DNA of 64,000 bases from assembly GCA_051294375.1 (NCBI GenBank), contig CM119263.1, positions 30,505,376-30,569,375 of the forward strand, given 5' to 3'. Below are positions 5,252-44,950 of this stretch, one piece after another. This DNA is from Paraspadella gotoi. Taxonomy: Eukaryota > Animalia > Chaetognatha. Numbering within the stretch: position 1 is the stretch's first letter; every line of letters starts with the position of its first letter. The notes beneath the pieces are model-generated. The model was not told the origin of the DNA, did no database searches, and saw only the letters and a program-made list of their open reading frames with translations. The translations under genes were made by a program, and so were the position numbers.

Positions 5252-5334
5252 ACCTGGCTTCCCTATCAATGAATTATATATTATATATTAATTATAATTA
5301 TATATTAATAATTATATATTATTTTTAAATATAG

Positions 5335-10515: not shown

Positions 10516-10573
<58 letters not shown>

Positions 10574-11809: not shown

Positions 11810-11848
<39 letters not shown>

Positions 11849-11962
11849 GTTTTTGTTAAAAAAAATTGAATTAGGATTGAACTCGTAAAATTATGCATCG
11901 AATTCGTTGCATGTTATCATTTTGCTATTGCAACATCAAGTTTTAATTTCCTTTTTATTTCC

Positions 11963-11997
<35 letters not shown>

Positions 11998-14299: not shown

Positions 14300-14556
14300 A
14301 TATCCACCAAATTTAATATAAATCCTTGTTATGATTCTTTCTTTTCGTTGCGTTTAAAATTTTAGGAAAAAAGTTTTTGTATGATAAACAACAATTTTTA
14401 TTAGACAATTTAGTCGGACAAGTATCGACTCTTGAAACATCTGACTAAATTGTCTAATAAAAATTATTGTTTATCATACAAAAACTTTTTTCCTAAAATT
14501 TTAAACGCAACGAAAAAGAAAGAATCATAAGGATTTATATTAAATTTGGTGGATAT
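14300..14556. repeat. ~256-bp palindrome next to the 25-N gap
   Basis: ATATCCACCAAATTT...AAATTTGGTGGATAT arms around the loop ACAAGTATCGACTCTTGAAACA. Confidence 0.85.
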
Positions 14557-17020: not shown

Positions 17021-17053
<33 letters not shown>

Positions 17054-17169
17054 GGAAATAAAAAGGAAATTAAAACTTGATGTTGCAATAGCAAAATGAT
17101 AACATGCACGAATTCGATGCATAATTTTACGAGTTCAATCCTAATTCAATTTTTTTTTAACAAAAACGC

Positions 17170-17200
<31 letters not shown>

Positions 17201-18427: not shown

Positions 18428-18487
<60 letters not shown>

Positions 18488-18754
18488 AAGAGACATAAAA
18501 TAAAATATAATTAATTAATTAATTTAAAATTAATTAATTAATAATTTAATAATTATTTATTAATAATTAATTAATTAATTAATAATTAATTAATTAATTA
18601 CAAATTAAATAATAAATTAATAATAATTATTTATTAATAATTATTTATTAATAATTATTTATTAATAATTATTTATTAATAATTAATTAATTATTAATTA
18701 ATTAATTAATTAATTATCGTAGGCAGATCCGACATTGTTTGCTCAAACTTGTTT
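16148..18754 (+). mobile_element. Composite HINE-like family A element
   Basis: Family A subTIRs, (GTCC)n, an 18-bp AAAAAATGATGCAAGTTG array and the 3' hairpin. Confidence 0.8.
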
Positions 18755-19154
18755 ATATTTATATTATGCTTAAGGCAAAATAAAAAACTTGTATGCAAGA
18801 TTTATCATGATGTATTATTTGATTAGATGATAAGCTCATTTATCATGGGTAATTTCAAGATAGTTAGCTCAAAACAATTTTTCTTTTACTAACTATCTTT
18901 TACTATCTATCTGAAATAGAAGATAGAAGGTTCAGGAGCCAAATTAAAGAGAAAATTACCATTAAATACTTTAGTTTGTTTTAAATATTAGTATTTTAAA
19001 TTTAAAGTTAAATTATAAAACTAACCGATTTTAACGGTTAACCGTTAAAAATGTTAGTTTTAGAATTTCCTGAAAAATTAACGGTTAACGAAACTCTATC
19101 CAAAGCATCATTAAACCAAGGACAATATTTTTAAGTTACGGTTTCGTTTAATAT

Positions 19155-22100
19155 TTAGGTAACTACCTCATAGAAATCTTTGATATCTAAATACGTCTGC
19201 AACGAAGTTCCATACAACTTTTCCACGATCAATCCTGCTCTATCCCTGATTTTCTTTAAAGCTTTATAATTCATCCTCAAGAGAACGCAGTCACTCAGCG
19301 CTATCACGTCATTTCGCCAAACTTCGAGCTTGAAATCGGACGGATTTGAATTTTTTATTCCAAAACAAGCTCCGGGATTTAAAGTTTTACAATTGTAACT
19401 ATTATCCAGGACTTTTTTCGTCAAGCGATGTTTGTAGCTCGCTTTAGAGTTTTTTGACGATTTCGATGATTTTGTGGCCTTTCTAATGTCGGAACTCATT
19501 TCTTCATTCGGTATTGCAACTTTGCCGTTAAGAAGAATAAAAATAGAGTCAATTATTTGTCCTTCTTCCAAGATTTCTTGTCCTCTTGGTACAAAAACTG
19601 TGTTAAACTCGTTCGTAACAATAGACAGCTGATCTTTGGGTATCTGACTTAAGCCTAATCTATGATAGATGGTTCGATATTTACTCAATCTCATTTGAGT
19701 CAGCGTATGCGACGGAATGCAATCGTATTCATTGACAAGAGTTACCAAAAATTCGTCCGAAGAAAGATAAATTTCCTCGTTGATACTCGCCTGTTTTCTT
19801 AAACGATTATTAATTTCTTTAACTTCTAAAAACTGTTTGAGGTTTTTGAGCCTCTGCGATTTTTTAATGCTGGTTCGATTAAGTGAGATGAAAACTCCGG
19901 TAGTATTGGCAATTAAATAGATAGCATGAATTAGATTAATAAAGTAACAGACTATATACGTATAATTAAATATTTCTGTCCCAGAGTTTAGTTGTACATT
20001 TATCCACAAACCTGTGTTAGTGAATAAACTTGTTGATAAGTACAAGACAATTGAGTAAAAGGCCAATAAAGAATTCGATATATGATACTGATCGCCATCA
20101 AATATCAACAAACGCATCCCATTTTCATAATATTTTGGTAGAACATAAGAAACGATGTTTTCCTTTACCTTATGGATGTACCCTTTCAGTCCCAAGATAA
20201 CATGACCACTCTCAGTCAATGGAAACGTATTTTCTTGAAGGCCGTGTGCAAATGAAGAATAATATATTTTCTTCACGTCCGGGTCGCGACCGGGATTCAA
20301 AGAATAACTGTACTTGCTCCATATCGTACACCGACTCCCCTTCTGAGTCTCTGAATAAATTGGATCGCATATAGTATGCGTCAAAAAGATAGTGAGAAGG
20401 AGGATGTGAATCGTCGTTCTTGACAAATACTCCCAAATCAGAATAATTGTCAAGTATTCGGGACATACTTTTTTGAAAGCTCTCAGCCTGCGGAACGGTT
20501 CCAAGAAACGGACTAGTATATACGGTCGTAAATAAACGTATTCTGTTGTGGTATCGGCTAAGGAAATTAAAATATCCCATGGAAACACGATAACAACGTG
20601 ATACAAGATCGAGAATGGATTCATTATTTCCTTCCAGTTCGACGTAGTCACTAATGTTTGCTGAAACACCGCATAGGCTTCTGTGATTATCAAGCTGTCC
20701 AAAAATGAGTTAATTGCCCTCAGCAAGTTAATGTCGGCAAGCATTTGAGCCTGAAATATATTGATTATAACGGAAATTATATATATCGTGCTCATAATCA
20801 AACAATGTACGACGAATTGAAATCTTACGCTTAATAACCTAAATTTTATGTTCAAAACTTTTGCTATTCTGGGGTAGCGGTTTTTCTTTGTAAAAATGTA
20901 AAATGTCGAAGCGCAGTTGCTTATTAGTTCGTGAGTTTTTTCATCCCTCTGTTTGTGATTGAATAAAACTTGAATATCTTCGGAGCATATCTCCCTCGCA
21001 GGCGCGGTTCTTATCAACACATCCAGCCAATCCTTTTGCATTTTGCGATTATTTAGAAGGCCTCGGTATATGATCTCTTCTCTGATGTAAAATCCCATGA
21101 CGTAAGTTTTAGTGAGGAGATTAGCAGGTTGCATCCCGAGCCAAAGACCGATGATTCCCACGGTGTCGTTCGGCCCGTATTGCGTGACAACCCCATAATC
21201 GTCCACAGAGAGACAAACTCCTCTTATTATGCGAAACAATGATACGTCGGCAGTCGAAGAATACCAAATGACGTAGCCTTAAAAGCCGGGGATTACTATT
21301 ACTGAAGTAGCCTAAATACTGACATTTAATTTCTAAAATTTGGCACACAGTGCAACTTTTCAGTCGAGGAAACCAAAAATTCGAGGTGGTCTCCTCGTAA
21401 TATGAGGATGTTGAAGTAGCTCGTTAACATATAAAGTACAGCCCTTTTTTAATTTATCAATAGATTTGAATACAAATTTATTTTTATATTATTTTTAATA
21501 TTGTATTATTTTCTATCTTTTCGTTGCTAAGTGAATATTAAGAAAGGTTTATTGTTGTGCCAATCCCGGGGGGGCCAGCTCATTTTTGAGCTCTTTCTTC
21601 TCTTATATATATTTCACTTTTTCAATTTTCATTACTACTTACTAACTTGTTTAACTTTTGTTATTAATTCAAAATCAGCTTATTTCTAAGTTTGTCAAAA
21701 ATTTTTATCTTTGTTGTACATTGTCAAATGTAATTATTTCTCCCTCTCTCTCTCTCTCTCTCTTTCATTTTTCACCATTTCAAAATTATCTTCTTCTTCT
21801 CTGTTCTTACCTTCACCTGTCCTCTCTCATCTGGCCACTGTCCTTTACTCAGCCCTTTGTTGGAAACTCTCTCTCAATCTCTCTCATTCTCTCTTTCTCT
21901 CACTCCCTAACTTAATGTGTAGAGCATTTTGTTAATGTTTTTTCAAAGCTGAAGAAAACTCAAACCAATAGAGTCGAAACATGTACTCTTATTAAATAAA
22001 AAATCGTTGTATTGGCACAATAATAAACCTTTCTAAATATTTTTAATATTTAATTATTATTTTATTTTGAAATTTTATTTTTCTTACATACCTGGTGGAT

Positions 22101-22677
22101 AAAAAACATAATTACCATTTCCCACGATAAAATTTTTAAAGTCGTAATCATAGTCAAACAGACTAGTTTCACCCTTCATCATCATATTTTGAACTTTTCC
22201 CGAATTTTTTATGTGGAGCGGCAAATTTATTAGTTTGTCCTTTGGCAAATAATAAATTCTGTTATAAATCAAATAGTTCAGTCGAAAATAAGAAATGCAC
22301 TGGATTTTCAATGAGGCGTCTTGGCTTTGAAGAAGGTTTTTCAGCGTCCTCAGATTTTCATTGTAAAATTTTAAGTATTTGTGATGAACCATGGATTTGC
22401 AAGCAATTTTTGCGCTGATAGTCGTTGTTGCAAACATTGCAAACACGGTGCCGACCATGAAGGGCACCGTTTTTATGAAATTAGTGAATGCTACATAGGT
22501 ATTTGAATTTCCAAAAGCAAAAACGTAATCTATGAAATGAACCAGGATGACTCCGTATCGGGAGGTCCAAAAATTTATTATATCATCTTTATTCTTATGA
22601 GTCCTGCAAAATTTTTCAAGAAGTCGCGACGACAGAATGTTGGAGTACGCCTTTGCCGACGCGAGATTCCTCAGCAT
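19155..22677 (-). CDS. 3' exons of a multi-repeat CNG/CNGK-like channel (exons about 22677-22092 and 21277-19155)
   Basis: Splice CCAG|gtatgt ... ttttaag|GC joins VFYPPG to YVIWYSSTADVSLFRIIRG, forming a CNBD. A second full repeat follows: S4-like LVRFLEPFRRLR, pore SLFTNTGLW, C-linker, and CNBD FVPRGQEILEEGQIIDSIFILLNGKV..LNPGACFG..WRNDVIALSDC. Confidence 0.8.
21537..22037 (+). mobile_element. Penelope-like pLTR fragment with minimal hammerhead
   Basis: GGGGGCCAGCTCATTTTTGAGCTC head shared with 48.85 and 60.43 kb; CTGAAGA-AAACTC..GAGTC-GAAAC-ATGTA at 21949-21985; bounded by the inverted repeat AGAAAGGTTTATTGTTGTGCCAAT. Confidence 0.6.
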
Positions 22678-24731
22678 AACGTTGTTGGGTAGCTCTTAAA
22701 ATAATTTCATGTGGTTGAGCTTTAATGATGCTTTTTGTGATTATTAGGTTAAGGCTTAAGCTGTTACCATCTAGGAAAAAACTATCACATTTTTAGTTGA
22801 GGATATTTACTCGAAAACTTGTTTGATTTAAAAAAAATCAGAATATTTCCAATTCTATATTAAATTTCTTATCAGTAGCTTTATTCCATTTTTGTAGCTC
22901 AAATCGTTTAGAAGTTACAGGCAAAAAAAGATTGCTTCCTCAAATAAAAAATTGTAGAAAAAATCATATTTAATTTTTTAAAATTTTTAGTATTAGTTAT
23001 TTTTATTTCGAATTGAATTAATTATTTTTTTAAAATTTGGTAATGCTATAGGTATTACACCTTTTTTTTGGTTCATAAAGGTGCTCTTGTGGACGAACAT
23101 CAAGAACACGCAACCTCGGTCAAACCACATGACCTTACCAAACTTACCTCGCTCAATTCCCCCAACTTATTTATGGTCAAAACGTTGACCTTTATGGTCA
23201 AACGTTGACCTTTGTAAATACCATTGTAATAGACTTAGCATCTGAGCATTTTGACTGTTATTGTTTATAACGTTGTTGAAGAATAAATCATTCTTACTCT
23301 GAAACTTGTTGCGTCCACACTCTTTTAGTTTTCAGAATAGGGAAAGATGTGTAACATTGTAAGAGGGGCTGAAAATAATTGCGTTAAAGGTGTGGAAAAA
23401 AATTTCACCATCATACCTCAATTCGCTGTATGAGAGTATGCCCAGACAAATTCCGGCAGGAGTCGATGCCAAAGGAAGGCACACCAAATATTGAGAATGT
23501 TTTACATATATTTTATATAAAAATTATAAAATTATTTATTTCATAATTTTTTGTTGAATAAATTAACTTTTTAACAATTATATGATATATAAGAGCTGAC
23601 GTCGTTCTTAGAGATCGAGAAAGATTTTTTCAATGGAGATTTTTGTTCAAATCTAACTACCAAACAATACCAGTGGCTGCGCCAATACATGTAAATCGCT
23701 TTCAAGGGCTTAAGCTGAACTGTTACTGTGGCACTAATATTTTTTTTTCAACTTGCATCATTTAGGATTAAAAACCCGTTAAGGTAAAGAGGATTAAAGA
23801 AGAAAAAGTAGTAATGAAGGTATACTTAAATAGAATATGCTTGAATAGCATAGTCAATGTCAGTTTGTGCGGGGTGAAGTATTGAAGGATTCGAATCCTT
23901 AACAGTTCTATCGAAAGTTACAGTGAAAAAAATAAACGCAACTCCCAACAAAACCACCAGGGCTCAAACCTGAGCGTAAGTTTAGTGTAAGTACATATCT
24001 ATATGTTTATACTATGTAAATGAAAAAGTATGAATACAAAAATTTTAGATGAGCATTATTATACAATTTTATAAAAGATACATTTTAAAATACATAATAA
24101 ATATATTGGAATATATGTTTAATGCTGTACCCATTTTAAAAATTGTAATCTATCATTAGGAGACTATTTACCTTTGCAAATTGAAGATGCCCTGTCACTG
24201 TATTCTGATCCGATCCTGAGGCTCTACATGTGCAGCTATTGAACATTCAAAGCTTGTTAAGATAGCTGGTAAGATATTTAATAAGTCAAAAGAATATAAA
24301 AAGTAAGAATTCGGTAATATAAATAACGTTAGAGGGATAATTAAATTTAAAAAAAAATTAATATTTTATGTATAGTTTTTTTTAAATTCATAATTTTTAA
24401 AAATAGATTCGGGAAGAGATTGAAAAAATGAATAAAAATATTATTACAAGATTTTTAAATTGTTATGTTTTATTAGTTAAAAATAGCAAAAACTATAAAA
24501 ATTATGGTATGATGATGATGATGATGATTTTTAATGGTTTTTCCCTTATTTGACCCACTTATCATCAAAATATTGAAAAACGCATTTTATTTTGTGTAGA
24601 CTTTTTATAGGGTATCTAAATCCGCTCTTAAGAAAGAAAATTCTAAAAAAAAATTTTTTTTCATTGCCTATGCATTTATAAATATTTAAAGGATTTAATA
24701 TTATACTGTGCTTTATTAGTTAAAAAGTGAT

Positions 24732-26084: not shown

Positions 26085-27197
26085 TGGTTCTAGTTGGTTG
26101 GCGACTTCGCCATGGCGAATGTCGCCAGGGCTTTGGCGATGTCGCCAGTCCCCCCACTGGCGACCTCGCCAGTGATAAAAGTAGCGAATATAATGAAAAG
26201 CGCAGCTAACACGGGGATGAGCATCACCTTCAGGCTCCTCTCCCAACCCTAACCCTAAACCAAACCTCCCGTTCAACTCTGTGCCTCTCCCTAACCCTAA
26301 CCGGGCCTGGGCTCCCGTACATCTCCATGCCTCAACCCTAACCCTAACTGCCTTTGATGCATCAACCACGGGCCCTCCCCAACCCTAACCCTAAACCAAG
26401 CCTTCCGTTCAACTCTGTGCCTCTCCCCTAACCCTAACCCAGGCTCAGCCTCCCGTACATCTCCGTGCCTCAACCCTAACCCTAACCGCCTTCGATGCAT
26501 CAACACGGGCCCTCCCCCAACCCTAACCCTAAACTAAGCCTCCCGTTCAACTCCATGCCTCTCCCCTAACCCTAACTCAGGCCCAGCCTCTGTACATCTC
26601 CGTGCCTCAACCCTAACCTAACCGCCTTCGATGCATCAACCATGGGTCCCTCCCGCAACCTAACCCTAAACCAAGCCTCCGTTCAACTCCATGCCTCTCC
26701 CCTAACCCTAAACCAGGCCCGGCTCCGTACATCTCCGTACCTCAACCCTAACCCTAATTGCCTTCGATATATAACCCACGGGCCTCTCTCCCAACCCTAA
26801 CCCTAACCGGGCCCAGGCCTCCCGTACATCTCCGTACCTCAACCCTAACCCTAATTGCCTTCGATATATAACCCACGGGCCTCTCTCCCACCCTAACCCT
26901 AAACCGGGCCCAGGCCTCCCGTACATCTCCGTGCCTCAACCCTAACCCTAACGCGGGCCTCTTGGTCATCAACAACACCCTCCCTACCCCTATCCTAAAA
27001 TTGACATTAATAATGCCTAAAATAAACTTAACTTAACTCAACCCTAACCCTAACCTAAATACTCAACCCTAACCCTAACTACTACCTACTCAACCCTAAC
27101 CCTAAACCAACTCAACCCTAACCCTAACCCTAATCTGAGTTATTTTAGGCGAAATTGCCATAACTAGAACGCTAGATGTAGTTCAGTGCGAAATCGC
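26085..27197 (+). repeat. Element arm of ~137-bp and ~93-bp units punctuated by (CCCTAA)2
   Basis: Unit anchor CCCTAAACCAAGCCTCCC recurs near 26253, 26390, 26529 and 26665. Homologous to 32716-33780, 33810-34861 and 44951-47883. Confidence 0.9.
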
Positions 27198-27204
27198 ATT
27201 TGCT

Positions 27205-28180
27205 TAAACCCTAACCCTAACCTACACTACTCAACCCTAACCCTAACTCAAAAATCCAAACATATCTACTAAAACTACTCAACCCTAACCTAAAACACAA
27301 TTTGTAAACTCTCTAACCCTAACCCATGCTTTGATAACGATATTCAACCCTAACCCTAACCCTAACCTCGAGAATCTCATACGTCAAGCTAAAAAATGCA
27401 TTTGTAAACTCTCAAACCCTAACCCTAACTCAAAAATCCAAACATACCTACTAAAACTACTCAACCCTAACCCTAAAACACAATTTGTAAACTCTCTAAC
27501 CCTAACCCATGCTTTGATAACGATATTCAACCTAACCTCGAGAATCTCATACGTCAAGCTAAAAAATGCATTTGTAAACTCTCAAACCCTAACCCTAACT
27601 CAAAAACTCAATACGTCCTTATTTTTATGTTTTGTAAACTCTTCAACCCTAACCCTAGCTAAAAAACGCGTTTGTAAACTCCCTAACCCTAACCCTAACT
27701 CGAAAAACTGAATACGTCCTTATTTTTATATTTTGTAAACTCTTCAACCCTAACCCTAGCTAAAAAAACGCGTTTGTAAACTCCCAAACCCTAACCCTAA
27801 CTAAAAAAATTCAATATGTCCATATTTTATATTTTGTAAACTCTTCAACCCTAACCCTAGCTAAAAACGCGTTTGTAAACTCCCTAACCCTAACTCGAAA
27901 AACTCAATACGTCCTTATTTTTATATTTTGTAAACTCTTCAACCCTAACCCTAGCTAAAAAACGCGTTTGTAAACTCCCTAACCCTAACCCTAACTCGAA
28001 AAACTCAATACGTCCTTATTTTTATATTTTGTAAACTCTTCAACCCTAACCCTAGCCAGAATCTCATACATTGTATTTATTTTCATTTAAATATCAACGT
28101 AAACTGCTAAACCCTAACCCTGTAGTTCAAATATTAGTATTTTTTACCATGTGTAAACTGCTCAACCCTAACCCGTAGTA
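27205..28180 (+). repeat. CCCTAA-containing satellites (~180-bp x2, then ~99-bp x5)
   Basis: AATACGTCCT anchor near 27610, 27711, 27813, 27906 and 28007. Confidence 0.85.
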
Positions 28181-29274
28181 CAAATATTACTATTTTTGAT
28201 TTCGTAGTACTTTCTTTGTTGCCTGCCGTGTGCACGCCTAAAATCGGCCTGTACGAGGTTCCAACGCAATAGGATCCTATGTTAAACGCCTTTCATTGTT
28301 TGGCTCCCGGGACAAAAATTTTTTCTCCCTAAACAGAGGTTCTTATATATTTGGGGAATGGGTCTGGCTTTTTCTGGAAATTTGAGTGTCTCACCTACCC
28401 TTATAAGAGAGCCTCTTTAACGTTATTCCTATTGGGTTGGAACCTCGTAGTGAATCGAATTTCCTATGTTGTAGAGGCAGGCAGCGGGTATCGGTGCCCG
28501 AGCCGTGGCTTGGGACTGAGAGCCATCGTTGTCTGCGTCGACTTGATCGCCCGGGAGACGGGCATTGGTCCTTGACCGTCACGGCCTCCTCCGCCAGGAT
28601 ATCCGGGTAGGAGGGGGCAACGACGGGCACCGTATTTCGATAGACCATGGTGGTTCTTCGGCGGTCACCGGCGATCGTCGACCGCAGATTTGAGATTCCC
28701 GCCGCTGATCGAGGGCAGCGCTGGCTGGGCAACGGTCACAACACGATAGACGGATTTTTCGGCGATCACCGGCGATCGTCGACCGCAGATTTGAGATTCC
28801 CGTGGTTGATCGAGGCAAGCAAGACGGAGACGGTGTTAAAAAAAGTGGTGCATGCGTGGGATTCGATCCCGTGATTCGCCGTGATCGCGGGGGAGAATTT
28901 CATGAAACGGTGAACGTTGGACCCGAGTTCGTTCGCTCGTGCTCATTTACGGGTAATGGGGATGTCGTAGGTTAAGAGAAAAGTCGCGGCCCACGCCTTT
29001 TCTCTGTCCCGCGCCGTCGCCAATTATTCGTCTATAAATAAGCGCGGGTATCGAACCTGTGACTCGCCGTGACTCCGTCAGGGCGATCGCTTCTCGAAGG
29101 GAAAAATATAGGCGATCGGCGAACCTGGGTTCTTTCGCTCCCTCGCCGAATTACAGTGTATATTTACGAGTAACGATGTCGTCGGTTACGGGAAAAGTCG
29201 CGGCCAAGGCTTTTCTCAATGTCCCGCGCCGTCGTCAATTATTCGTATTTATATAAGCGCGGAGAAGGATCCTT

Positions 29275-29441
29275 TGACTCGCCGTGACTCCGTCAGGGCG
29301 ATCGCGGGGGAAAAAATATATAAAATATTGTAAAAAAGTCGTGCCTGCTCGGGATCGAACCCGTGACTCGCCGTGACTCCGTCAGGGCGATCTCGGAGAA
29401 AATTTCAGGCCCGAGCGAGCACGGTCGCGAGAGGAATGAAA
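29275..29441. repeat. ~167-bp direct repeat, copy 1 (copy 2 at 32357-32523), flanking the recombinase gene
   Basis: TGACTCGCCGTGACTCCGTCAGGGCGATC...GCACGGTCGCGA(G/A)AGGAATGAAA is present at both sites. Confidence 0.85.
29332..29423 (-). ncRNA. Candidate Pol III small structured RNA (second copy about 32414-32504)
   Basis: On the minus strand, 5' CGTGCTCGCTCGGG pairs with 3' CCCGAGCAGGCACG; internal B box GGGTTCGATCCC; followed by AC-TTTTTT. Confidence 0.4.
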
Positions 29442-29916
29442 AAAAGTAGTTCCGTCAGTCTTCGGTGAACATCGGACCCGGGTTCATTCGCTCATTCACC
29501 GAAAAGTCAAATAATGCTAAAATATGACAAAAATACCCGCGAACTGGAAAAGCCCGGTAAAAATGTCGGATACACACATGTTTCGGGACTGGGTTCTCTC
29601 GTTCATGCGCCGCCATTTTTGTATTCATACGCGAATCATTTCTCAGTAATAATAAAGAACGGCAAGGAAATAGAGGATGGTAAAGGACGGAATAGTGCAA
29701 AAAGCACGAAAAAAACGCTAAATGTTGGAATGAAAGCGTTATACTCGGCCGCGGGTCGGTCTCGGTCTCGGTCTTGGTCTCGTCGGAAAAAAAAGGATGG
29801 AAAGCGCGGAAAAGCGCGAATATAGAACGAAGTCAAATGTCCCCGGTGTCGGTCTCGATCGTCGGGGAAGGGAAAAAAAGGACGGTAAAGTCGCCCAAGC
29901 TTTCCCGGGGTGACCT

Positions 29917-29923
29917 TATAAAA
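29917..29923 (+). promoter_or_regulatory. Candidate TATA box of the recombinase gene
   Basis: TATAAAA about 125 bp upstream of ATG 30043 in otherwise GC-richer sequence; AATAAA at 31802-31807 follows the ORF. Confidence 0.35.
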
Positions 29924-30042
29924 ATTCGTTTCTCTACCGTGACCTGAGAAGCGAATGAGCCAGGCAGTAAGTGACCATAGTTCACGGTAGGCTATGAGCG
30001 ATCTCGCAGCAAGGGATCGATCAGTTTGTGTTTTTGCTAACT

Positions 30043-31626
30043 ATGGATCATTTTACTTGCCTCGAATGTAAAAAAAATTACCCACGAGAAACCCGCGGGA
30101 AAGGAATAACTTGGGCAAAATCCACGAACAAAAAATGGGTAAAAAATTCGCTGTGGGAAAGAGACTGCTTACCCGTGTCCCGAAAATGAATGCAATGGTT
30201 GCAGCGCAACCTATGCACGACTTCGTGAACATTTTGGAACACGCACGGGTTCCGAATGACGACGCTTTCAGCTACGGAGGGAGAGGACTTCGCAGGCGCG
30301 CAAGACAAAAACTGTGCGCTATTCTAGATGGAAAAAACTGGCCTGATGCCCCTGCATCGCCCGCTAATGAGATTCCCACGAACCCGGAGAAAATAACGAC
30401 AACGGCCTCGGAGCAGATAGAGGGGACGGTAGTGGCGGAACCGGCTGTTGATACTTCTTATGATCTCTCTACCCCTTCCAACAGCCATCTTCTTCCACAA
30501 CTCGGTCCGGTCTCCTGTGGTTCGTACTCCTTCTCCTAAGGTAATTCGTAGGGAGGGGAGGGTACAGTAGGTACACGCGCTGGAAAATTTCGGAAGGGGC
30601 CTGTTCACGGGGTAATAACCTTTTTCCCTGCTTACAGATTCCCCAAGCTAAACTCCCGGATGATCTACGTAGTTGGATGGACGACCGCTACTCTCGCGCT
30701 ACCGGTGTCTGCGTATTCTGTTCACATTGGCCGGTTCATGGCTTTCTGCCATCCTTTCAGCGCGGAATACGCCTTTGAAGCAAAAAAGCTTGAAAAGTTT
30801 TGTCCCTATCGACGGTCCCTACTACGCGCAGTGTAGCGGTCTCCAGCCTCGGAAAGTCTACGTAGTGTACCTCGTCGCCGCCGCCGGAATATGAGCCGTC
30901 AGAGATGGATAGGCTGATCTGGGATGACATCCGGCGCGTGACACAAAGGCAAAAACGCGTCAGACAGACCAAGGTTACCCTGACCAAAAACCGGTAGGAC
31001 AGATTTAAAGTCACTACGTCCCCTCTTTCGGAACCCACGAGACGACTATCGCTTCTTGGACATCTCTCGGTCGGCAAAGAAGCGAGCTATAACACGGACT
31101 GAATACAATTTCGTCTCGGCATATGTAGCTTTGAAGGTGTTCTCCCAACAAAATGCAAAACGGCTGGGAAATCTTGCCCGCCTTACCCTCTCATCAATCT
31201 ACAAAGCGCGGGGGTGAGCGGAAAGTCCGGGCCTTGGGTAGTGCAGGTCCGAATGGCGACAAAGATTAAAGCTCCGGATGCATATGTGATAAATGATCCC
31301 TGTCGAAGGGGCTTCTGCTACGTTTTATTCGCACATACGTCCTTCTCTCAAACAGTCGCAGCCTCACGGTATCTATTTCCGCAGTATGATGGCCAGGCTC
31401 GGGGCACCTCGGCCTTTGCCGCTATCCTTCGGACCTTCGCTAGGTCCCGGGAATTGATGGTTTCAACATAACAACCTCTACGGCGTGCTGTGGCCTCGGC
31501 AGGCGCTGAGGACGCCGGAACGGACAGGCAGCGCTTGCCCAGGCGCTGGGTCACACGCAAGTGATTCAGCGTCAGTTTTACCTTCGCGGATCGGATGCAC
31601 AAAAAGTCCGAATCATCGGAAGTTGA
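30043..31626 (+). CDS. Tyrosine recombinase (Crypton-like) with N-terminal C2H2-like zinc fingers; frameshifted in this assembly; intron 30541-30637
   Basis: Manual translation gives NAKRLGNLARLTL (Arg 31161), WVVQV..K, RYLFP (31367), ITTLRRAVAS (about 31470-31498) and LAQALGHTQVIQRQFY (His 31552, Tyr 31579), in the correct order and spacing. Splice sites AG|GTAATT..TTACAG|. Confidence 0.75.
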
Positions 31627-32715
31627 CGACTAGTTACTCGCGAATTCGGCCAGGAGAAGTCATGGAAAAAACGTTTACGGCCGCGTAAACTTGATCCGTC
31701 AGACTCACCAACTGGGTCGGGGGGTCGGAAGAGGGTACGGGGATGTAGCTTTGACTGTTTCCTTTTGATGCCTAAAGATTCATGCCCAATTAATGCATAG
31801 TAATAAACATGTATTTTAATTTCCAATGTTGAGGACTCCATGGTGAAGTAACAAAAAGTAGGGTGAAGTCCCGTCCCCGTGTAGCTAGTTTTAAACACGC
31901 GGGACAGGCATGAAAAGCAAGACCGGCCGCGGGGTTGGTCTCGAATGAAAGATGGTATGGAAATAGCTGAGTGGTGTCCCGTGGTGGGACTAGCGGCTTC
32001 CGAGCATAGTTATAGCAAAAAACAAGTTTCACGCCTTGCAGGAAACAGGCGGACGGGTATATAAAAGCATGCCAGCCGTGGGATTGCTCTAGAATGAAAG
32101 ATATTGAGAAGACCGAGCGGTGTCCCACAGTGGACTGCGGCTTCCTAGGCATGGGTATTTGATCGAGAAAGCCGAGCGGTGCTCCCATGGCGGGACTGCG
32201 GCCTCCAATCGTCGGTAATACATGCCGTCGAACCATTGGGTAGTTCGGGTCCGAGAGTCGACTCGACTACTCCTCTACGGGCACGTCTGGGTAAGGGGAA
32301 GTTCTTTCTCTGAGCCTAAGTATTGCTCTTGGTTGTCCGCGTGTGATTCGAACCCGTGACTCGCTGTGACTCCGTCAGGGCGATCGCGGGGAAAAAATAT
32401 ATAAAATATTTGTAAAAAAGTCGTGCCTGCTCGGGATTGGAACCGTGACTCACCGTGACTCCGTCAGGGCGATCTCAGGAGAAAATTTCAGGCCGAGGGA
32501 GCACGGTCGCGAAAGGAATGAAAGATGGTATTGAGAAGACCTGAGCGGTGTCCCACAGTGGGACTGCGGCTTCCTAGGCATGGGTATTTGATTGAGAAGC
32601 CGGAGCGTGACGGCTNNNNNNNNNNNNNNNNNNNNNNNNNNNNNNNNNNNNNNNNNNNNNNNNNNNNNNNNNNNNNNNNNNNNNNNNNNNNNNNNNNNNN
32701 NNNNNNNNNNNNNNN

Positions 32716-34861
32716 GCCGGCGTTCACGCACGAGTTCAGGTGTGGTTCTAGTTGTTGGCGACTTCGCATGGCGATGTCGCCAGGGCTTTGGCGATGTCGC
32801 AGTCCCCCACTGGCGACTCGCCAGTGATAAAAGTAGGGAATATAATGAAAAGCCGCAGCTCACGGGATGAGCATCACCTTACAGGCTCCTCTCCCAAACC
32901 CTAACCTAAACCAAAGCCTCCCGTTCAACTCTGTGCCTCTCCCCTAACCCTAACCCGGGCCTGGGCCTGCCCGTACATCTCCATGCCTCAACCCTAACCC
33001 TAACTGCCTTTGATGCATCAACCACGGGCCCTCCCCAACCCTAACCCTAAACCAAGCCTTCCGTTAACTCTGGCTCTCCCCTAACCCTAACCCAGGCTCA
33101 GCCTCCGTACATCTCCGTGCCTCAACCCTAACCCTAACCGCCTTCGATGCATCAACCACGGGGCCCCCCCCCAACCCTAACCTAAACTAAGCTCCCCGTT
33201 CACTCCATGCTCTCCCCTAACCCTAACTCAGGCCCAGCCTCCTGTACATCTCCGTCCTCAACCCTAACCCTAACGCCTTCGATGCATCAACATGGTCCCT
33301 CCCCAACCACTAACCCTAAACCAAGCCTCCGTTCAACCCATGCCTCTCCCTAACCTAAACCAGGCCGGCCTCCCGTACATCTCCGTACCTCAACCCTAAC
33401 CCTAATTGCCTTCGATATATAACCCACGGCTCTCTCCCAACCCTAACCCTAACCGGGCCCAGGCTCCGTACATCTCCGCCCTCAACCCTAACTAGCCTCT
33501 AACCCAGTCTAACCTACACGCAGGCTGCCTCGTCTACAACCCTCGCCCTCATCAACAACACCCTCCTATCCCTATCCCTAAAATGACATTAATAATAAGC
33601 CTAAAATAAACTATACTTAACTCAACCCTACCTAACCCTAAACTACTCAACCCTACCCTAACTACTACCTATCAACCCTAAACCCTAAACCAACTCAACC
33701 CTAACCCTAACCCTAAACTGAGTTTATTTTAGGCAAAATCGCCATAACTAGAACCTAGATGTAGTCACAGCTAAATCGCCAAATGGCGGGGCGTCATGGC
33801 TAAGTCGCGATTTGGCGATTTCGCACTGAACTACATCTAGCGTTCTAGTTATGGCGATTTGAGCCTAAACTAAACTCAGATTAGGGTAGGGTTAGGGTTG
33901 AGTTGGTTAGGGTAGGGTTGAGTAGGTAGTGGTTAGGGTTGAGTAGTTTAGGGTTAGGGTTGATAGTTTAGGTTGGTTAGGGTTGAGTTAAGTTAAGTTT
34001 ATTTTAGGCTTATTATTAATGTCATTTAGGGATAGGGGTAGGGAGGGTGTTGTTGATGACCAGAGCCCGCGTTAGGTTAGGGTGAGGCACGGAGGATGTA
34101 CAGAGGCCTGGGCCGGTTTTAGGGTTAGGTTGGGAAGAAGGGCCCGTGGGTTATATATCGAAGGCAATTAGGGTTAGGGTTGAGGTACGGAGATGTACGG
34201 GAGGCCTGGGCCCGGTTTAGGGTTAGGGTTGGGAGAGAGGCCCGTGGTTATATATCGAAGGCAATTAGGGTTAGGTTGAGGTAACGGAGATGTACGGGAG
34301 GCCGGCCTGGTTAGGGTTAGGGGAGAGGCATGGAGTTGAACGGAGGCTTGGTTTAGAGGTTAGGGTTGCGGGAGGGACCCATGGTTGATGCATCGAAGGC
34401 GGTTAGGGTTAGGGTTGAGGCACGGAGATTGTACGGAGGCTGAGCCTGGTTAGGGTTAGGGGAGAGGCACAGAGTTGAACGGAAGGCTTGGTTAGGGTTA
34501 GCGGTTGGGGGAGGGGCCCGTGGTTGATGCATCAAAGGCGTTAGGGTTAGGGTTGAGGCATGGAGATGTACGGAGGCCCAGCCCGGGTTAGGGTTAGGGG
34601 AGAGGCACAGAGTTGAACGGGAGGTTTGTTTAGGGTTAGGGTTGGGAGAGGAGCTGAGGTGATGCTCATCCCCGTGTTAGCTGCGTTTTTCAATTATATT
34701 CGCTACTTTTATCACTGGCGAGGTCGCCAGTGGGGGGACTGGCGACATCGCCAAAGCTGGCGATATCGCCATGGCGAAGTCGCCAACCAACTAGAACCAC
34801 ACCTGCAACTCGTGCGTGAATCGCCGCGACATCGCTATTTGAATGAACTACAACTTAGGTT
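32716..34861. repeat. ~2.1-kb palindrome of two TTAGGG-laced arms around an asymmetric spacer at 33785-33809
   Basis: A CCCTAA-strand arm is followed by a TTAGGG-strand arm; spacer GGCGGGGCGTCATGGCTAAGTCGCG. Confidence 0.85.
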
Positions 34862-35009
34862 CTACGTGAGTTTCGTCAATGTCAAGCCTAACCTAGCCCT
34901 TGTTCAATCCCTCGGGAGCCACAGTCCGCCGTGGGACACCCCTTGCCCTTCAATGCCGCAGCCCGCATGGGACACCCGCTCGACTCTCAGTAGGTCGAGA
35001 GTCCCGCGA

Positions 35010-35930
35010 CCCCCATTGACAAATGTTTCACATGCGGACAACAAGAGCGGTACTTAGGCTCAGAGAAAGAACTTCCTTACCCAGACGTGCCCGTAGAGAG
35101 TAGTCGTCGACTCTCGGACCCGAACTACCCAATGGTTCGACGCTGCATTACCGGTGATTTGAAGCCGCAGTCCCGACCTGGGACACGCTGGCCCCTTCTT
35201 GCGTGATCGGACAAGCCCAGGTGGCCTGGCGATCACGAGGGTCCCGTGACCCCATGACAAATATTTTCACACGCGGACAACCAAGACGGTACTTAGGCTC
35301 GGAGAAAGAATTCCCTTTACCTAGACTGCCCGTAGAGAGTAGTCGAGTCGACTCCCCGGAACCCTAACTACCAATGGTTCGACGCGTGATACCGCGATTT
35401 GGAAGCCGCAGTCCCGCCTTGGGAACACCGCTCGCCCCTTGCGTAATTGGACCAGACCGTGGGCCTGGCGATCACGAGGGTCCGCGGACCCCCATTGAGA
35501 AATGTTTTCACACCGCGGACAACCAAGAGCGGATACTTAGGCTCAGAGAAAGAACTTCCCCTTACCCAGACGTGCCCGTAGAGAGTAGTCGAGTCGACTC
35601 TCGGGACCCGAACTACCAATGGTTCGACGCGTGTATTACCGGACGATTGGAAGCCGCAGCCCACCAGTGGGAACACCCGCTACGCCCTTGCGGAATTGAC
35701 CAGACCGTGGGCCTGGCGATCACGAGGGATCCCAGCGACCCCCATTGAGAAATGTTTTCACACGCGATAACAACAAGAGCATGACTTAGGCTCAGAGAAA
35801 GAACTTCCCCTTACCCAGGACCGTGCCCGTAGAGAAGTAGTCGATGTCGAACTCTGGACCCGAACTACCAATGGTCGACGCATTAATTACGAGATTTGAG
35901 CCTGCAGTCCCGCCTGCGGACAACGCTCGC
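35010..35930. repeat. ~240-bp GC-rich tandem array (about 4 units)
   Basis: CCCATTGAGAAATGTTTTCACAC anchor near 35010, 35250, 35490 and 35740; a partial unit lies inverted at about 32180-32345. Confidence 0.85.
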
Positions 35931-36184
35931 TTTCAGATAAACCTTCATTGCCTATGGAAAAGCCGGTGCCCACTGGGATCACCGCTCAGGACTTCTCACC
36001 ATTGAACCGAACAGAACAGAGTCTTTACCAGAAATTCCTTACCAAGTGCCAGTAACGGAGCACCGGACTACCAAGGACGATCAGTAAACCCTAACGAGGG
36101 CGCATGCCGTACACCCCTTTATCAACCCAGCCCAAAGTCCCTTGACAGCGTCGTCTACCATACTTCATCTCGCAAACGACTCTC

Positions 36185-38253
36185 GCCTGAAATTCTGGAT
36201 CGTGACAGTCCGGTGAGCTCACGGGTTCCCAATCCCGAGCGGGCACGACTTTTTTACAAACTAATTTATATATTTTTTTCCCCGGATCGCCTGACGGAGT
36301 CACGCGAGAGTCACGGGTTCGAATCACATCGTCGGACAACCAAAGGAGCAATAAACTTAGGCTCAGAGAAAGAACTTCCCCTTACCCAGACGTGCCGTAC
36401 GAGAGTATCGAGTCGACTACTCGGACCGAACTACCCAATGTTCGGCCCATGTATCTGACGGATTGGAGCCGCAGTCCCGCCATGGACACCGTCGGCTTTC
36501 TCGATCAAAATACCAGCTAGGAAGCCGCAGTCCCACTCGTCAGGGACACACCGACTCGGTCTCTCAATATCTTTCATCTAGAGCAATCCACGCTGGCCAT
36601 GCTTTTATATACCCGTCCCGCCTGTTCCTGCAAGGCGTGAGAATTGTTTTTTGCTATAACTATGCCCGGAAGCCGCAGTCCCACCACGGGACACACCTGA
36701 CAGCTATTCCATACCATCTTCATTCGAGACCAACCCGAGGCCGGTGTCTGCTTTTCATGCCTGTCCGGCGTGTTTTAAAACTAGCTACACGGGAGACGGG
36801 ACTTCACACGCATACTTTTGTTACTACCACACATGGAGTCACTCACATTGGAAATTAAAATACATGTATATTACTATGATTAATTGGCATGAATTTTAGG
36901 CAGTCCAAAAGGAAACAGTCAAAGCTACATCCACGTACCTCTTCCACCCCCCAGACCCAGTTGGTGAGTCCTGACGGATCAAGTTTACGCGGCAGCGTAA
37001 AACGTTTTTCCATGACTTCTCCTGGCCGAATTCGCGAGTAACTGAGTCGTGTCAACTTCCGAGATCGCGAGACTTTTTGTGCATCCGATCCGCGAAGAAA
37101 ACTGACGACTGAATCCTTGCGTGGACCCCAGCGCCTGGGACAAGCGCTGGCCCTTTCCGTTTCTGGCGTCCTCAGCGCTGCCGAAGGCCACAGCCACGCC
37201 CGTAGAGTTGTTATTTGAAACCATCAATTCCCCGCGGACCAAGCAAGGTCCGAAGGATAGCGGCAAAGGCCGAGTGCCCGACCTGCCATCATACTGAGCG
37301 GAAATAGATACCGTGAGGCTCGACTGTTTTAGAAGAATGACGATTATGCGAATAAAACGTTAGCAGAACACCCCTTTAGACAGGGGATCATATTATCACA
37401 TATCTCCGGAGCTAATCTTTTCGCCAATTCGGACCTGCACTACCCACAAGCCCGACTTCCGCTCACCCCCCGCGCTTTGTAGATTGATGAGAGAGGTAAG
37501 GGCCAAGATATTCCCAGCCGTTTTATGACATTTGTTGGGAGAACACTCCAAAGACTACATATCCGAGAGCGAAATTGTATTCAGTCCGTGTTATAGCTCG
37601 CTTCTTTGCAGACCGCAGAGATGTCCAAGAAGCGATAGTCGCTCGTGGGTCCGAAGAGGGGACGTAGTGACTTTAAATCTTGTCCTACCCGGTATTTGGT
37701 CAGGGTAACCTTTGGTCCTGTCTTGACGCGTTTTTTGCCTTGTGTCACGCGCCGGATGTTCATCCCAGAATCAGCCTATCCATCTCTGACGCTCATATTC
37801 CCGCGGGCGACGAGGTACATAGTAACTTCCGAGGCGGAGACGCTACACTCGCGTAGTAGGGACCGTCGATAGGGACAAAAAACTTTTCAAGTTTTTGCCT
37901 TCAAAGGCGTATTTCCGCGCGAAAGGATGGCAGAAAGCCATTGAACCGGCCCAATGTGAACAGAATATCGCAAGACCGTAGCGCGAGAGAGCGGTCGTCC
38001 ATCCAACTACGTAGATCAACCGGGAGTTAGCTTGGGGAATCTGTAAGCAGGGAAAAAAGTTATTACCCCGTGAACAGGCCCCTTCCAAATTTATCCAGCG
38101 CGTGTACTACTGTACCCCCCTCCCTACGATACCTTAGGAGTAAGGAGTACGAACCACAAGGAACGGGACAGTTGTGGAAAAGATGGGTGTTGGAAGGGGT
38201 AAGGAATCATAAAGAAGTATAACACCGTTCCGCACTACCGTCCCCTCTATCTG
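36185..38253 (-). repeat. Error-rich inverted duplicate of 30414-~32490 (second read-out of the recombinase gene)
   Basis: Reverse-complement similarity with many independent indels. Confidence 0.85.
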
Positions 38254-38508
38254 GCGACATCGCTATTTGAATGAACTACAACTTAGGTTTAAATCTAAAC
38301 TTTTGCGCAATTTTTGTGACACTAATATTTTGGAATATGTTAAAATTAATACGGATGGCTCATTACTGTGGGATTGAAAAACCTTACGCAAGCTTTCTAG
38401 GAAATGTGGTTTGTTCATCGTATGATCTTTATAAATTACAGAAAGCACTGTTTATAGTGTTTATAGTTTTGTGTTAGGTTTTCATTTTGGTTTCATATTA
38501 AAAATATA

Positions 38509-41404: not shown

Positions 41405-42015
41405 CAGTATTGCACCCATGTAGTATTGGGCCTTTAAAATTGCACCCCAAGGAGTGCACCCACGTAGCATTGAGTCCACGTACAATTGTACCCATAGTAT
41501 TCCGCCCACTTTAGATTGCGCCTACATGGGATTCCGCCCATGTAGAATTGCGCCTGTGGATAAGGCACTAAGTGGGCTGAAGATGACTATCCGTAACTTC
41601 TTTAACCCCCTCTAGCAGCTATGGAACGGGTCCTGGGCTTGGAACCAGGCTTGAGGGTTTTCCACGCCCCCAAGGCGGCTTACGGCCGTCCTCACACTTC
41701 CCGCAGAGTAGGTACCGGGTTAGGATTGAACCCGGTACCTAGTGGTCATGAGCTGATGGCTTTATTCAATGAGCCACCGGGTCACAACTGAAGGATTCAT
41801 GCTTAGAGGCGGGGTGAACTTTGCTATGCCCGACTACACGCCTACCCCAGACTGCCCATAGAATTGAGCCCATAGTAATGCGCCCAAAGGATTGTGCCAT
41901 TGTAGGATTCCGCTCACTTAGCGTTGGGCCCAAAGGATTTGAATTATCAGTGGGCGCAATACTGTGGGCGCAATTTTCTGGGGGAAATCCTACGTGGGTA
42001 CAATCCTAATGGAAC
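41405..42015. mobile_element. MITE with short subterminal tandem repeats, interrupted by a SINE
   Basis: ATTGCACCCATGTAG-type units on the left and the inverted CTACGTGGGTACAAT on the right. Confidence 0.5.
41558..41792 (-). mobile_element. tRNA-derived SINE (second copy 43977-44210)
   Basis: Minus-strand GGTGGCTCATTG A box and GGGTTCAATCC B box; two similar dispersed copies. Confidence 0.7.
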
Positions 42016-43480
42016 CGTTCTGATAAGGATATATAATATATTATATATATATATATTATATATAGGGGAAAGATTAATAGGGGCACCTTTATTAGGCAAA
42101 ATAAAAGCTCACCATAAATGTTATAAATGTTGTTGCAATATTTAGGTCTGAAAATATCACTTTTTGTTTTTGTGTATAAAAAATGACATTGTGCTTTAAA
42201 ACAATCATTTTGCGAGGTATTTAACATTTTACAAACTTGTTCCTTTAAAGCCTTTTCATAGTGCAAACAGTAATTAGATAGTGTACGATAACTGATAAAT
42301 AGAAATAATCTTATGGAATAATGAATGGTAGCGAGACACATACATATTATTATAATAATAAAACTCCACAGTCCAAAATTCCATTTGGTAATATTATTTG
42401 TAACATCTATGAAAGTATTTATCTTATATCCAAATAAAAAGATAGAAACAAAATTTATTATTGTTTGATTCAGTTTTTTTGATAATTTATGCTTTAGGGC
42501 TTTAGCACCACAAAGAAGCCGTCCTTCTGACCAAATATTTATAGACATCCAAATTATAAAATCCGCAAGACATATCAAGGTTATTATTGGAAAATAATAT
42601 GGATCCAAAAAATATAGCTATGGTGAAATATAAATATTTTCTCCATTTTGTTAATATTTTATTACATACCATGATGGAAAAAAAGTATCGCGGTTTGGAA
42701 AAGTCAGTTAATTTTATTGTCAAATATATTTTTTGGCTAATAAATAAATTTTAATAGGTAATATGACCTCCTTAAGACTGAATAAAATAATTATTTCTCA
42801 ACAGCATTAAATTATTCAATGTATTCAAATACTTCCAAAAGAGGTTGTCTCTAACCGTTTTTACTTCTTTTTGATTAAGAGAACTATTCATATTATTGTT
42901 AAAATTATATCTCGGACATAATATTTTTTTTCGATTTGGGGTAAAAATGGTCCTTAGCAAGCAGTGAAAAAGATTGATCCTCTATAAAGTAAACCAGGCT
43001 TGAGTTGTAGCTTCATAATGTGATAATTCATTATCTTTCACTTCAATTTTTGGACTTGTTTGATATTAGATTCTGATAATATATCCAAAGGTAAATAAAA
43101 ATGATAACTTTGCTTACAGAAAGGTTACCCAGAACCTTATAACTTTTATTAATACTTTACAATTTAAAAATAATATTCTGTAATATCTACAGCATCAATA
43201 TATTTTTAATATTGCTCTTTTTTAACATATGAATTAAGATTCATCCCTGAATCTATCCTAATGGAGATAATACAATAACTATTTGACATGAGACTGAGAA
43301 AAGGCAGGGATTTTTAATAGTATTGGTTAAACTCAAAAAGTAATAAAAAAAAACCAGAAATGAATTTAAATAAAAAGTATAGATATAAGAGAAATAAAAA
43401 ATGAAAGAAGCATTTTTTTGGACAACGCATTTTCTTTTACATGGAACTCCTGTATTTTTTGTCATACATAAATGAGACAC
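42006..43480 (-). CDS. Highly degenerate channel-like exon fragments (TM helices, pore-like YYFLSLTNT, CNBD-like FYLPLDIL)
   Basis: Hydrophobic ORFs 43253-43480, 42502-42723 and 42006-42608 lie on the same strand between clear channel exons. Splice structure not resolved. Confidence 0.4.
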
Positions 43481-44950
43481 AGCTTATATGAATCACAAAA
43501 GGTTAAAGTTTTTTATATTTAAATTTTATTTTTCAATTTTTACATTAAAATGCCGAAAAATAACTGGAAAGTAACCGCAACACTTTTTTTTTCCATCATG
43601 GTAGTATGTTTCATAATATAAACTAATTAATTTATTTAAGGAGTAAACTTTAAAGAATAAGAAGCGGGTATTGTACTGATTCAATCCCAACCCAGTGCTT
43701 GCCATAAGGGAAGCTTAGGGACGGCGCTAAACCGCCTAGAGATTTTTAACCACTAGCTTAAGCCCAGTTCCAAGATCAAAGGTGTAAAAAATTTATGGAT
43801 ATTCAGCTGACTCGTGGCCACTTCGCGCGTTATGAATACTAGTGTGCCCGGATCCTATTGAAGATTGCTTCACTCCCTTAACTAAATAAAATATTTTGAA
43901 TGGGCATAGCAATCCCTAAGCCCGGTTCAAAGCCTCACTAGTCTATCGTAGCAATCGGAGATAACAGCATTTTTGAGGATAAGGCGCTAAGTGGGCTGAA
44001 GATGACTATCCGCAACTTGCTTAACCCCTCTTGCAGCCATGGAACAGGTCCTGGGCTTAGAAACAGGCTTGGGGGTTTTCCAGGCCCCCAAGGCGGTTTT
44101 TAGCCATCCTTATGCTTCCTGCAGGGTAGGTACCAGGTTGGGATTGAACCCGGTACCTAGTGGTCATGAGCTGATGGCTTTACTCAATGAGCCACCTGGT
44201 CATGACTGAAACTGTCTTATAGTTATTCTCAAAAATTCTAACTACACATCTGGTCAAAAAAAAGTTTAAAAGTTATGATAAAAGCATTTTATTTAGTTAT
44301 TTAAAAGAAAATAATATTTAAGATTCAATTAATATATTGTTAGATTACCATTGGTTTTTAGTACTACTTTTATGCAACAAGGGAGAGATTCGCAGAGGCT
44401 GCGCAAATATGAAGGGTTCAGCTCTTCCTAAATATATTTTATAATTTTTTTGATTTTGTCAATTGTTGTGGCATTGTACTGCAAAATATCTTATTTTATC
44501 CTTAACCAGATTTTTTTAATGATTTTGCAGTCAGGTAAGTTTCCGGGTAAACCTTTGAGCATCTTAATCCTATTTTTATCGTCGCAAACGCAAAGCGGTG
44601 GTTTTGTACATAAATGGCGTTAGCGTCGGAATTTTATAATAAAATAATTATATTAATAATAATTATTCATTGCTGAATGACTAGCGATAATTCTTTTTTT
44701 TTTAACTATAATAATAATAATAACTAAAATATTTAGCTTAAAAACTTTGTTATAAGCTCGAATGAAAAATATTTGTTTTAGCTTTTAAATTAATAAGCTT
44801 TTTAATTAATAGGATGACAGACAAATGAGATAGTAGGGGGTTAAAAGTTTAAATTTTTTTTGACCACATCTGTAGTTCTTACTTTCCCAGTATAATTTTT
44901 GAAATATGTTGACAAATTGGTTTCATTACAAATTTTTCTCGTGAATTATA

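Follow-up and report, generated by a model that had tools for sequence, protein, structure and literature searches.

A probable Crypton-like tyrosine recombinase transposon with three TAACCC-rich arms and hairpin derivatives in the chaetognath Paraspadella gotoi

What kind of mobile element combines a tyrosine recombinase (YR) gene with three long arms that repeat the motif TAACCC? The question is raised by a 64,000-nucleotide stretch of the chaetognath Paraspadella gotoi (GenBank assembly GCA_051294375.1, contig CM119263.1, positions 30,505,376 to 30,569,375 of the forward strand), which is the window analyzed here and from whose first letter all coordinates are counted. We find it reasonably probable that positions 26086-38289 hold one 9.9-kb Crypton-like YR DNA transposon with three TAACCC-rich arms, accompanied by non-autonomous hairpin derivatives. 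An initial annotation, made from the sequence alone, had likened the locus to YR retroelements that form circles through an internal complementary region (ICR) or split repeats, and had also considered a hairpin-ended linear intermediate. Its reconstruction, its three arms, its YR and its circle-capable ends have stood, and its link to YR retroelements has not.

A single recombinase locus

A noisy block at 32716-38253, which follows a run of 100 Ns (32616-32715), is printed in the wrong orientation and belongs on the minus strand. Positions 36211-38253 within it (minus strand) and positions 30414-32455 are one locus read twice, and there is one YR gene rather than two. The two reads match at 87.6% once the former is reverse complemented, and in the gapped alignment of the overlap 39 mismatches (13 transitions and 26 transversions, the random ratio) stand beside 209 gap events, 83% of which are 1 bp. 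At 13 overlapping coding sites the window differs from population contigs; there, the second read agrees with the window at 11 sites, shows a gap at 2 and never has the population letter. It thus carries the alleles of the left copy, which rules out two inverted YR genes. Furthermore, the reverse complement of 32716-32760 terminates in GCCGGC, and 38254-38289 extends it exactly as in the intact arm end at 34800-34861; by BLAST, this intact tip matches 32718-32752 at 94.6% and 38254-38289 at 100%. The block is considered inverted and the YR gene single because the differences in the overlap are of the indel type, the alleles are shared and the arm tip is rebuilt. The same evidence bears out the inversion of 32716-38252 in the initial annotation, by which the GCCGGC end runs into 38256-38287. 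The overlap that it gave as 30414-32490 is real, although clear alignment stops at 32455, and its element of about 10 kb (26085..38289) is a single unit of 9902 bp whose ends are 26086 and 38289. The locus illustrates an assembly error that doubles one YR gene into an apparent two.

The recombinase gene

The YR gene (30186-31797, plus strand) is broken by read errors, and its start codon is uncertain. It was compared, as a read-through with X at six breaks, with a profile of the catalytic domain of 84 bacterial and phage YRs. The read-through scored 25.4 bits, a score reached by none of 500 shuffles (maximum 2.6), and the reversed sequence scored 0. Five of the six residues of the catalytic set are aligned: R148, K172, R247, H270 and Y279 of XerD, whose catalytic roles are established, fall on R, K, R, H and Y of the YR. 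The spacings R-R 108, R-H 23 and H-Y 9 lie within the reference ranges of 85-159, 23-24 and 9-10. With this profile score and these aligned residues, the claim that 30186-31797 encodes a member of the tyrosine recombinase superfamily is confirmed at the level of sequence comparison. When the profile was run on the six-frame translation of the window, no single frame matched and only the read-through did; consistently, single-frame pieces of the YR returned nothing relevant in Pfam, PHROGs or PDB. Atlas leads fell below the threshold (0.84 vs. 0.9) and were clusters in which 22% of the members have DUF3435 and 12% have DUF3504. The arm motif was not found in scans of viral and metagenome contigs.

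The YR region is also contained in public sequencing runs of one organism, four of which (X1, X2, X5 and X9, with X1 and X2 from two studies) are named here; contigs from four runs were compared on 28100-32615 and from three runs on 34670-35030, and depths taken from such contigs are rough and are not copy numbers. Frame breaks at 31332, 31349 and 31448 match indels in these contigs, and the other breaks were placed from the reading frames. The gene likely contains a GT-AG intron at 30541-30637, because stop codons occur near it in all three frames. The spliced frame with two listed indels is open for 172 codons, but in another frame than that of the expected downstream motif. Run X9, for which the label RNA is a guess, covers the intron and the repeats.

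A single contig of about 2.1 kb with the YR only (29810-31906) was found in X1 and in X9, with 33-38 differing letters, and is the dominant form there; the YR is at about 5-19 times single-locus depth. The contig spanning the YR in both runs points to a young family of near-identical copies. Among 106 open-frame pieces (28170-32610 on both strands and the second read), Pfam matches to reverse transcriptase (RT), RNase H (RH), gag, methyltransferase (MT) or DDE transposase were absent, in what is a weak test given the short pieces: the scan gave one unrelated match (E = 0.049) and also missed the YR itself. The room between satellite and YR (28170-30186) is only about 1.6-2 kb and is repeat-laden.

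Structure of the element

After the inversion, the order over 9902 bp is arm, satellite, YR, 240-bp array and arm-loop-inverted arm. Arm A1 (26086-27197, plus strand) carries GC-rich subterminal palindromes together with four 136-bp and two 97-bp TAACCC-bearing units, and ends inside the loop sequence. It is followed by a TAACCC-bearing satellite of 170-bp and 101-bp units (27198-28170, plus strand). On the far side of the YR gene, a tandem array of 3.8 units of 240 bp (34996-35930, minus strand; further partial units at 32178-32346 and 36324-36477) is joined by a linker (34862-34995, minus strand) to the internal arm tip. This tip (34800-34861) belongs to arm A2 (33815-34861, minus strand), which has three 136-bp units and takes the orientation of A1 after the inversion. 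The hairpin centre (33746-33850, without strand), where two inverted paired sites surround an asymmetric loop and which is about 90% identical to 45512-45680, connects A2 to arm A′ (32716-33775, plus strand), inverted relative to both A1 and A2. The rest of the right tip (38254-38289, plus strand) has the half-site AACTACA at 38274 and closes the unit with GGTT at 38286-38289.

The three arms are 1.05-1.11 kb long and about 98% alike, with four 136-bp units in A1 and in A′ and three in A2. No sequencing-adapter-like run was found at the hairpin loop, and a missed-adapter fold-back at the hairpin centre is ruled out by the unequal unit counts, by the absence of that run and by the conserved loop. 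The layout A ... A-A′ of the initial annotation is upheld, the arms being distinct by unit number and the loop about 90% conserved in a second element.

Two internal direct repeats around the YR (29268-29448 and 32350-32530, both plus strand) share 90.7% identity. A joint skipping 32054-32516 was present in all four runs; for three of them its depth was computed and is about 0.43-0.55 times that of the YR, and by depth the second repeat is skipped in about half of the population copies. The direct repeats of the initial annotation therefore exist but are not constant in the family, and the joint rules them out as element ends or constant parts. For the 240-bp unit, depth in X1 and X9 is about 6-8 times that of the YR, as would suit an array present in every copy; the sums for X2 and X5 are higher and come from many short contigs. 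Contigs at the satellite end (28115-28284) are near YR depth (157 vs. 130 in X1, 56 vs. 48 in X9).

Some further features were noted inside the unit. A 118-codon basic, Arg/Ser-rich open frame without Pfam match lies upstream of the YR (29469-29825), in a stretch uncovered in X9. Motifs like the tRNA box B occur on the minus strand at 29047-29057 and 29351-29361, within the internal repeats, and are possibly derived from short interspersed elements or signals for RNA polymerase III; the window has 5 such motifs vs. 0.27 expected, and no tRNA genes were called in it. An Rfam match to MIR869 (48.5 bits vs. a cut-off of 330) reflects the hairpin only and was rejected.

Ends and candidate recombination sites

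Both ends of the 9.9-kb unit carry GGTT as a 4-bp direct repeat and are otherwise different. At the left end (26086-26089, plus strand), GGTT is followed by CTAGTT, giving the half-site TCTAGTT; this end is of the tip-less type and is like the end at 47879-47882. At the right end, AACTACA is followed by a short spacer and GGTT. The related element at 45-48 kb ends in GGTT (tip-less) and GGGT (tip), and in the population the ends differ by a few bases. Each of the two window elements pairs a tip-less end with a tip end, and in the public contigs arms stop at both end types (34796-34801 and 34846-34861), with AT-rich sequence at the printed loose ends at 34796, 34846 and 34859.

An inner paired site with the layout AACTAGA - 8 bp - TGTAGTT (27162-27183, plus strand) is a putative recombinase site. 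The layout occurs four times in the window (27162, 33829, 45541 and 45624), always with the 8-bp spacer and always beside the loop, and these four inner pairs are copies of one site. Half-site pairs with spacers of 4-7 or 9-13 bp were absent from the window, and 100 random 64-kb sequences did not contain the layout once. AACTA(G/C)A is a candidate recombinase half-site. If the AACTACA of the right end and the TCTAGTT of the left end were joined across one GGTT, they would form, like the inner sites, two half-sites around 8 bp (AACTACA/8 bp/TCTAGTT), the spacer finishing in GGT. The proposal of the initial annotation that the element could form a circle is supported to this extent, by a junction predicted from the end sequences. 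At the internal tip junction (34846-34864), the sequence agrees with the predicted end-to-end junction over the half-site, the spacer and just 4 letters more. A joint from 32497 to 29810 in X9 is compatible both with a circle and with a deletion inside the element beside repeat 1.

Hairpin relatives and copy abundance

A YR-less two-arm relative (44950-47882, minus strand) consists of a left end (47882), an arm, the loop, a short inverted arm, a tip, an extra 100-bp tip unit and a right end (44950). Two pieces of its arm (47710-47469 and 46171-45622) run collinear with A1, and a separate AT-rich foldback (46207-47473, without strand), whose inverted ends are 73% identical over about 290 bp, is nested in the arm. 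Relative to the left and right ends, its loop is oriented opposite to that of the 9.9-kb unit, as inversion between inverted arms or inner sites would give. The relative has the structure expected as the remainder of an A1-A2 deletion. The tandem 100-bp tip unit was also found in X9 contigs.

Tip depth over arm depth is 0.44 in X1 and 0.60 in X2, in line with one tip per two arms, with some blurring from overlapping contigs. Arm depth is about 9-18 times YR depth in all three runs, and most arm ends run into unique DNA. An arm excess over the YR is as expected for non-autonomous copies, and in animal Cryptons such copies outnumber autonomous ones according to the accessible portion of the source (PMC3212892, section 8). 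The abundant two-arm hairpins are therefore presumably non-autonomous copies.

The linker contig (34873-34945) has a depth of 74.5 in X1 and 153.8 in X2, and its loose end continues into array-like sequence. In X1 and X2 the linker reaches about 4-5 times the depth of a single locus; it is multicopy in two of three runs, and depth beside the tip in X2 is 0.6-1.3 of YR depth. We regard the arms as part of the YR element because the linker is multicopy, depth on the tip side in X2 is near that of the YR, the satellite end has YR-like depth and the outer ends match those of the two-arm element. For the initial annotation, YR copies without arms would have made the arms an unrelated miniature inverted-repeat transposable element (MITE). 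Arms do occur without the YR and in excess over it; on the other side, the YR-less copy with both end types and the multicopy linker favor non-autonomous derivatives over an unrelated MITE.

Proposed mechanism

The Crypton-like transposon would excise as a circle by joining its GGTT ends, and the circle would re-insert at GG(TT) cores in AT-rich DNA. Its YR likely mobilizes a much commoner family of gene-less hairpins that have the two ends in common with it. These hairpins may have arisen from a deletion between A1 and A2, comparable to the origin of solo long terminal repeats, which would leave left end, arm, loop, inverted arm, tip and right end. A broader proposal, which we make tentatively and hold to be somewhat doubtful, is that of an animal group of YR-only transposons whose recombinase acts at both terminal and internal paired sites, through end-to-end, direct-arm and inner-site recombination. 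End-to-end recombination would move the whole element, a direct-arm crossover would release a YR circle and leave a gene-less hairpin that is still mobile, and inner-site inversion would flip the loop.

If this is true, palindromic telomere-motif repeats that are abundant in the genomes of animals would have a parent and a mechanism. The 9.9-kb element also ties an abundant TAACCC-motif hairpin family, which would otherwise pass for a MITE or an interstitial telomere relic, to a recombinase. It makes the mechanism testable by offering exact candidate ends, a candidate half-site with its spacer, a circle junction that can be predicted and a YR that is young and multicopy.

Alternative explanations

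Several observations weigh against one Crypton-like transposon with mobile hairpin derivatives. In the YR, a frame break coincides with the first His of the H-x-x-R box, where the flanking frame has Thr, and the read-through segments were picked partly by motif. Longer or close relatives of the protein were absent from protein, viral and metagenome contig searches, and because relatives were not found the YR is assigned to no named Crypton clade (A, F, I, S or V). The half-site was picked by eye within one family, and its statistics show non-chance rather than binding. Among five joints at 34670-35030 there was no circle junction, in contigs that drop rare forms. The arm subfamily is large, young and about 98% alike (a 184-bp contig reaches depth 1946 in X1), and likeness of arms does not equal membership in one element; the arm excess over the YR itself counts against arms that belong to it. 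The linker was not seen in X9 though the YR is present, and elsewhere its depth is just 0.2-0.6 times that of the YR; the right side may therefore be missing from many YR copies. Among the contigs listed, none crosses the tip-linker junction by 31 letters in both directions, and the linkage in public data covers the satellite end and the right linker, as distinct from the left arm-satellite junction and the host junctions.

These abundance data lend themselves to separate foldback or MITE arms, in which the YR and satellite would sit inside one hairpin broken at its loop, with a second hairpin adjoining, in a nesting perhaps inherited by few duplicated copies. The depth of the arms, their ends in unique DNA and the missing linker in X9 would suit such nesting, as would the YR-less hairpin and the other nested foldbacks of the window, and the right hairpin, with tips on both sides, could be a complete element. 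We nevertheless consider nesting rather unlikely: the tip-linker-array join is multicopy in two studies, A1 and the satellite are built on a common TAACCC motif and adjoin each other in the cleaner contig, and the 9.9-kb unit has at its outer ends the left and right types of the two-arm element, with GGTT at each of its own two ends. The ends also resemble recombinase half-sites rather than terminal inverted repeats (TIRs) with a constant target duplication. A MITE or foldback of a DDE transposon would be expected to have symmetric TIRs and a constant target-site duplication; in the two elements of the window the ends are asymmetric. A read or scaffolding chimera that created the right-hand arm pair, such that the three-arm layout is absent from the genome, has a small probability. 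In its favor, the block comes from a noisy read next to an N gap and the window also contains a 5.5-kb fold-back (98.5%, at 8930-20083); against this, A2 and A′ differ by a whole 136-bp unit with no adapter-like run, the loop is conserved in another element, X1 shows the linker joined to the array and, in X2, contigs of the linker extend to the tip, and the read carries the locus's own YR alleles.

The linear hairpin-ended intermediate of the initial annotation, here extended to a YR that acts as a telomere resolvase on the arm-loop-arm junction and to TAACCC arms that mimic telomeres, is the least credible of the alternatives. The centre is an imperfect palindrome (the fold of the 45-kb copy has -28 kcal/mol) and lies in opposite orientations in two elements, like flip-flop isomers. 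However, protelomerases have a longer R-H spacing than XerD-type recombinases, and the spacing of 23 in this YR belongs to the XerD-type set; no polymerase or viral gene was recognized, and loop inversion is simpler through inverted arms or inverted inner sites. Scarcely more credible is a deleted, RT-less derivative of a DIRS/Ngaro-type YR retrotransposon, with repeats acting as ICR or split repeats. The internal tip junction that equals the predicted end junction is loosely ICR-like, and the direct repetition of A1 and A2 recalls split-repeat elements. On the opposite side stand the failure to find RT, RH, gag or MT in the 106 frame pieces, the little room beside the YR, the dominance of the YR-only contig in X1 and X9 and the likely intron, and the repeat order A ... 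tip-A-loop-A′-tip′ fits neither definition as given in the accessible parts of PMC6681497 and PMC13465315.

Genomic surroundings

The window is animal-like, with a GC content of 37% and with exons that encode cyclic-nucleotide-binding and ion-channel domains; its assembly is noisy and contains N gaps at 14557-14581 and 32616-32715. Long host frames lie on the minus strand at 7300-8559, 19155-21278, 22084-22695, 42006-42617, 51478-52269 and 55148-56053, three of them with cyclic-nucleotide-binding or ion-channel domains. The YR element and its 45-48 kb relative sit between host frames and may lie in introns of a single large channel-like gene or cluster. The fold-back 8930-14433/14582-20083 (5.5 kb, 98.5% identity, 5 substitutions, 49 gap events) surrounds the 25-N gap and duplicates host exons, and is most likely a head-to-head double assembly of one locus. 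Units of 155-179 bp and 18 bp characterize another abundant repeat family (49815-53526 and 938-6134), with direct and inverted copies across the window, and an array of 15-16-bp GGGATTCCTCCC units at 53997-54202, which ends near a CCCTAAC motif, is a small telomere-motif repeat family. Another foldback (58754-59507) has 234-bp arms at 94%, ends that start with TATGG, CTAGAAC in both arms and a different inner repeat. CryptonS termini are reported as TATGG in the part of PMC3212892 available to us.

Comparison with known systems

The YR is the sole recognizable enzyme of the element, as in the Crypton DNA transposons that Goodwin reportedly described in 2003. Kojima and Jurka (2011) give for Cryptons 4-6-bp terminal direct repeats, a proposed circular intermediate and two inverted site elements with a 6-8-bp spacer (PMC3212892). 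Consistently, RT, gag and DDE transposase were not found in the short Pfam pieces, the 9.9-kb unit has GGTT/GGTT as a 4-bp terminal direct repeat (GGTT/GGGT in the 45-48 kb element), inverted half-sites are paired with an 8-bp spacer, and gene-less copies are commoner than YR copies. In the same source, as far as available, terminal repeats were not found in animal Cryptons and a circular intermediate is proposed for them by analogy. No Crypton family of Pfam matched among the 106 frame pieces. Cryptons as described in the accessible parts of PMC3212892 and PMC13465315 are without TIRs or long direct repeats. The element works like a Crypton but departs from this description in its arms, which number three (two direct and one inverted) and measure about 1.1 kb each. 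It is further set apart by the paired sites repeated internally, by tandem units with the telomere motif and by its two satellites. CryptonV elements are YR DNA transposons described from cnidarians, some with a target-site preference, and are reported to insert into microsatellites (PMC8869645); both window insertions, in contrast, are in plain AT-rich DNA, a comparison by description rather than by termini.

The retroelements DIRS, PAT/Ngaro and VIPER have gag and RT/RH with either inverted terminal repeats (ITRs) plus an ICR or A1...B1-A2-B2 repeats, according to partial texts (PMC6681497, PMC4157794, PMC13465315). The element is like them in its YR and in internal repeats related to the termini, and unlike them in that gag/RT/RH were not found and in that its repeats follow neither the ITR...ICR-ITR nor the A1...B1-A2-B2 order. 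A chaetognath YR element with 166-bp TIRs is filed as DIRS-related in PMC2997562. A YR-only element with long inverted arms was not found in the literature searched, which was available in part, also includes PMC5753468 and PMC2632668 and leaves Repbase, a 2020 review by Kojima and supplements outside its scope, so a prior description is possible.

Endogenous nimaviruses have telomere-targeting YRs with (TAACC/GGTTA)n as target, genomes of about 280-400 kb and host telomere flanks, as the accessible part of PMC10871703 reports. An animal-associated YR and a link to the telomere motif are common to both, and the nimavirus target contains the GGTT core of the element ends. Unlike nimaviruses, which were compared by description rather than by sequence, the element is 9.9 kb, has no recognizable viral gene and carries the motifs inside its arms. 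Sites with inverted 13-bp half-sites and an asymmetric 8-bp spacer are used in the plasmid or phage systems Flp/FRT (yeast 2-micron plasmid) and Cre/loxP, and their embedding in long inverted repeats gives inversion isomers. The 8-bp spacer and the inverted half-sites of the element are alike to these, with a candidate half-site core of 7 bp instead of 13.

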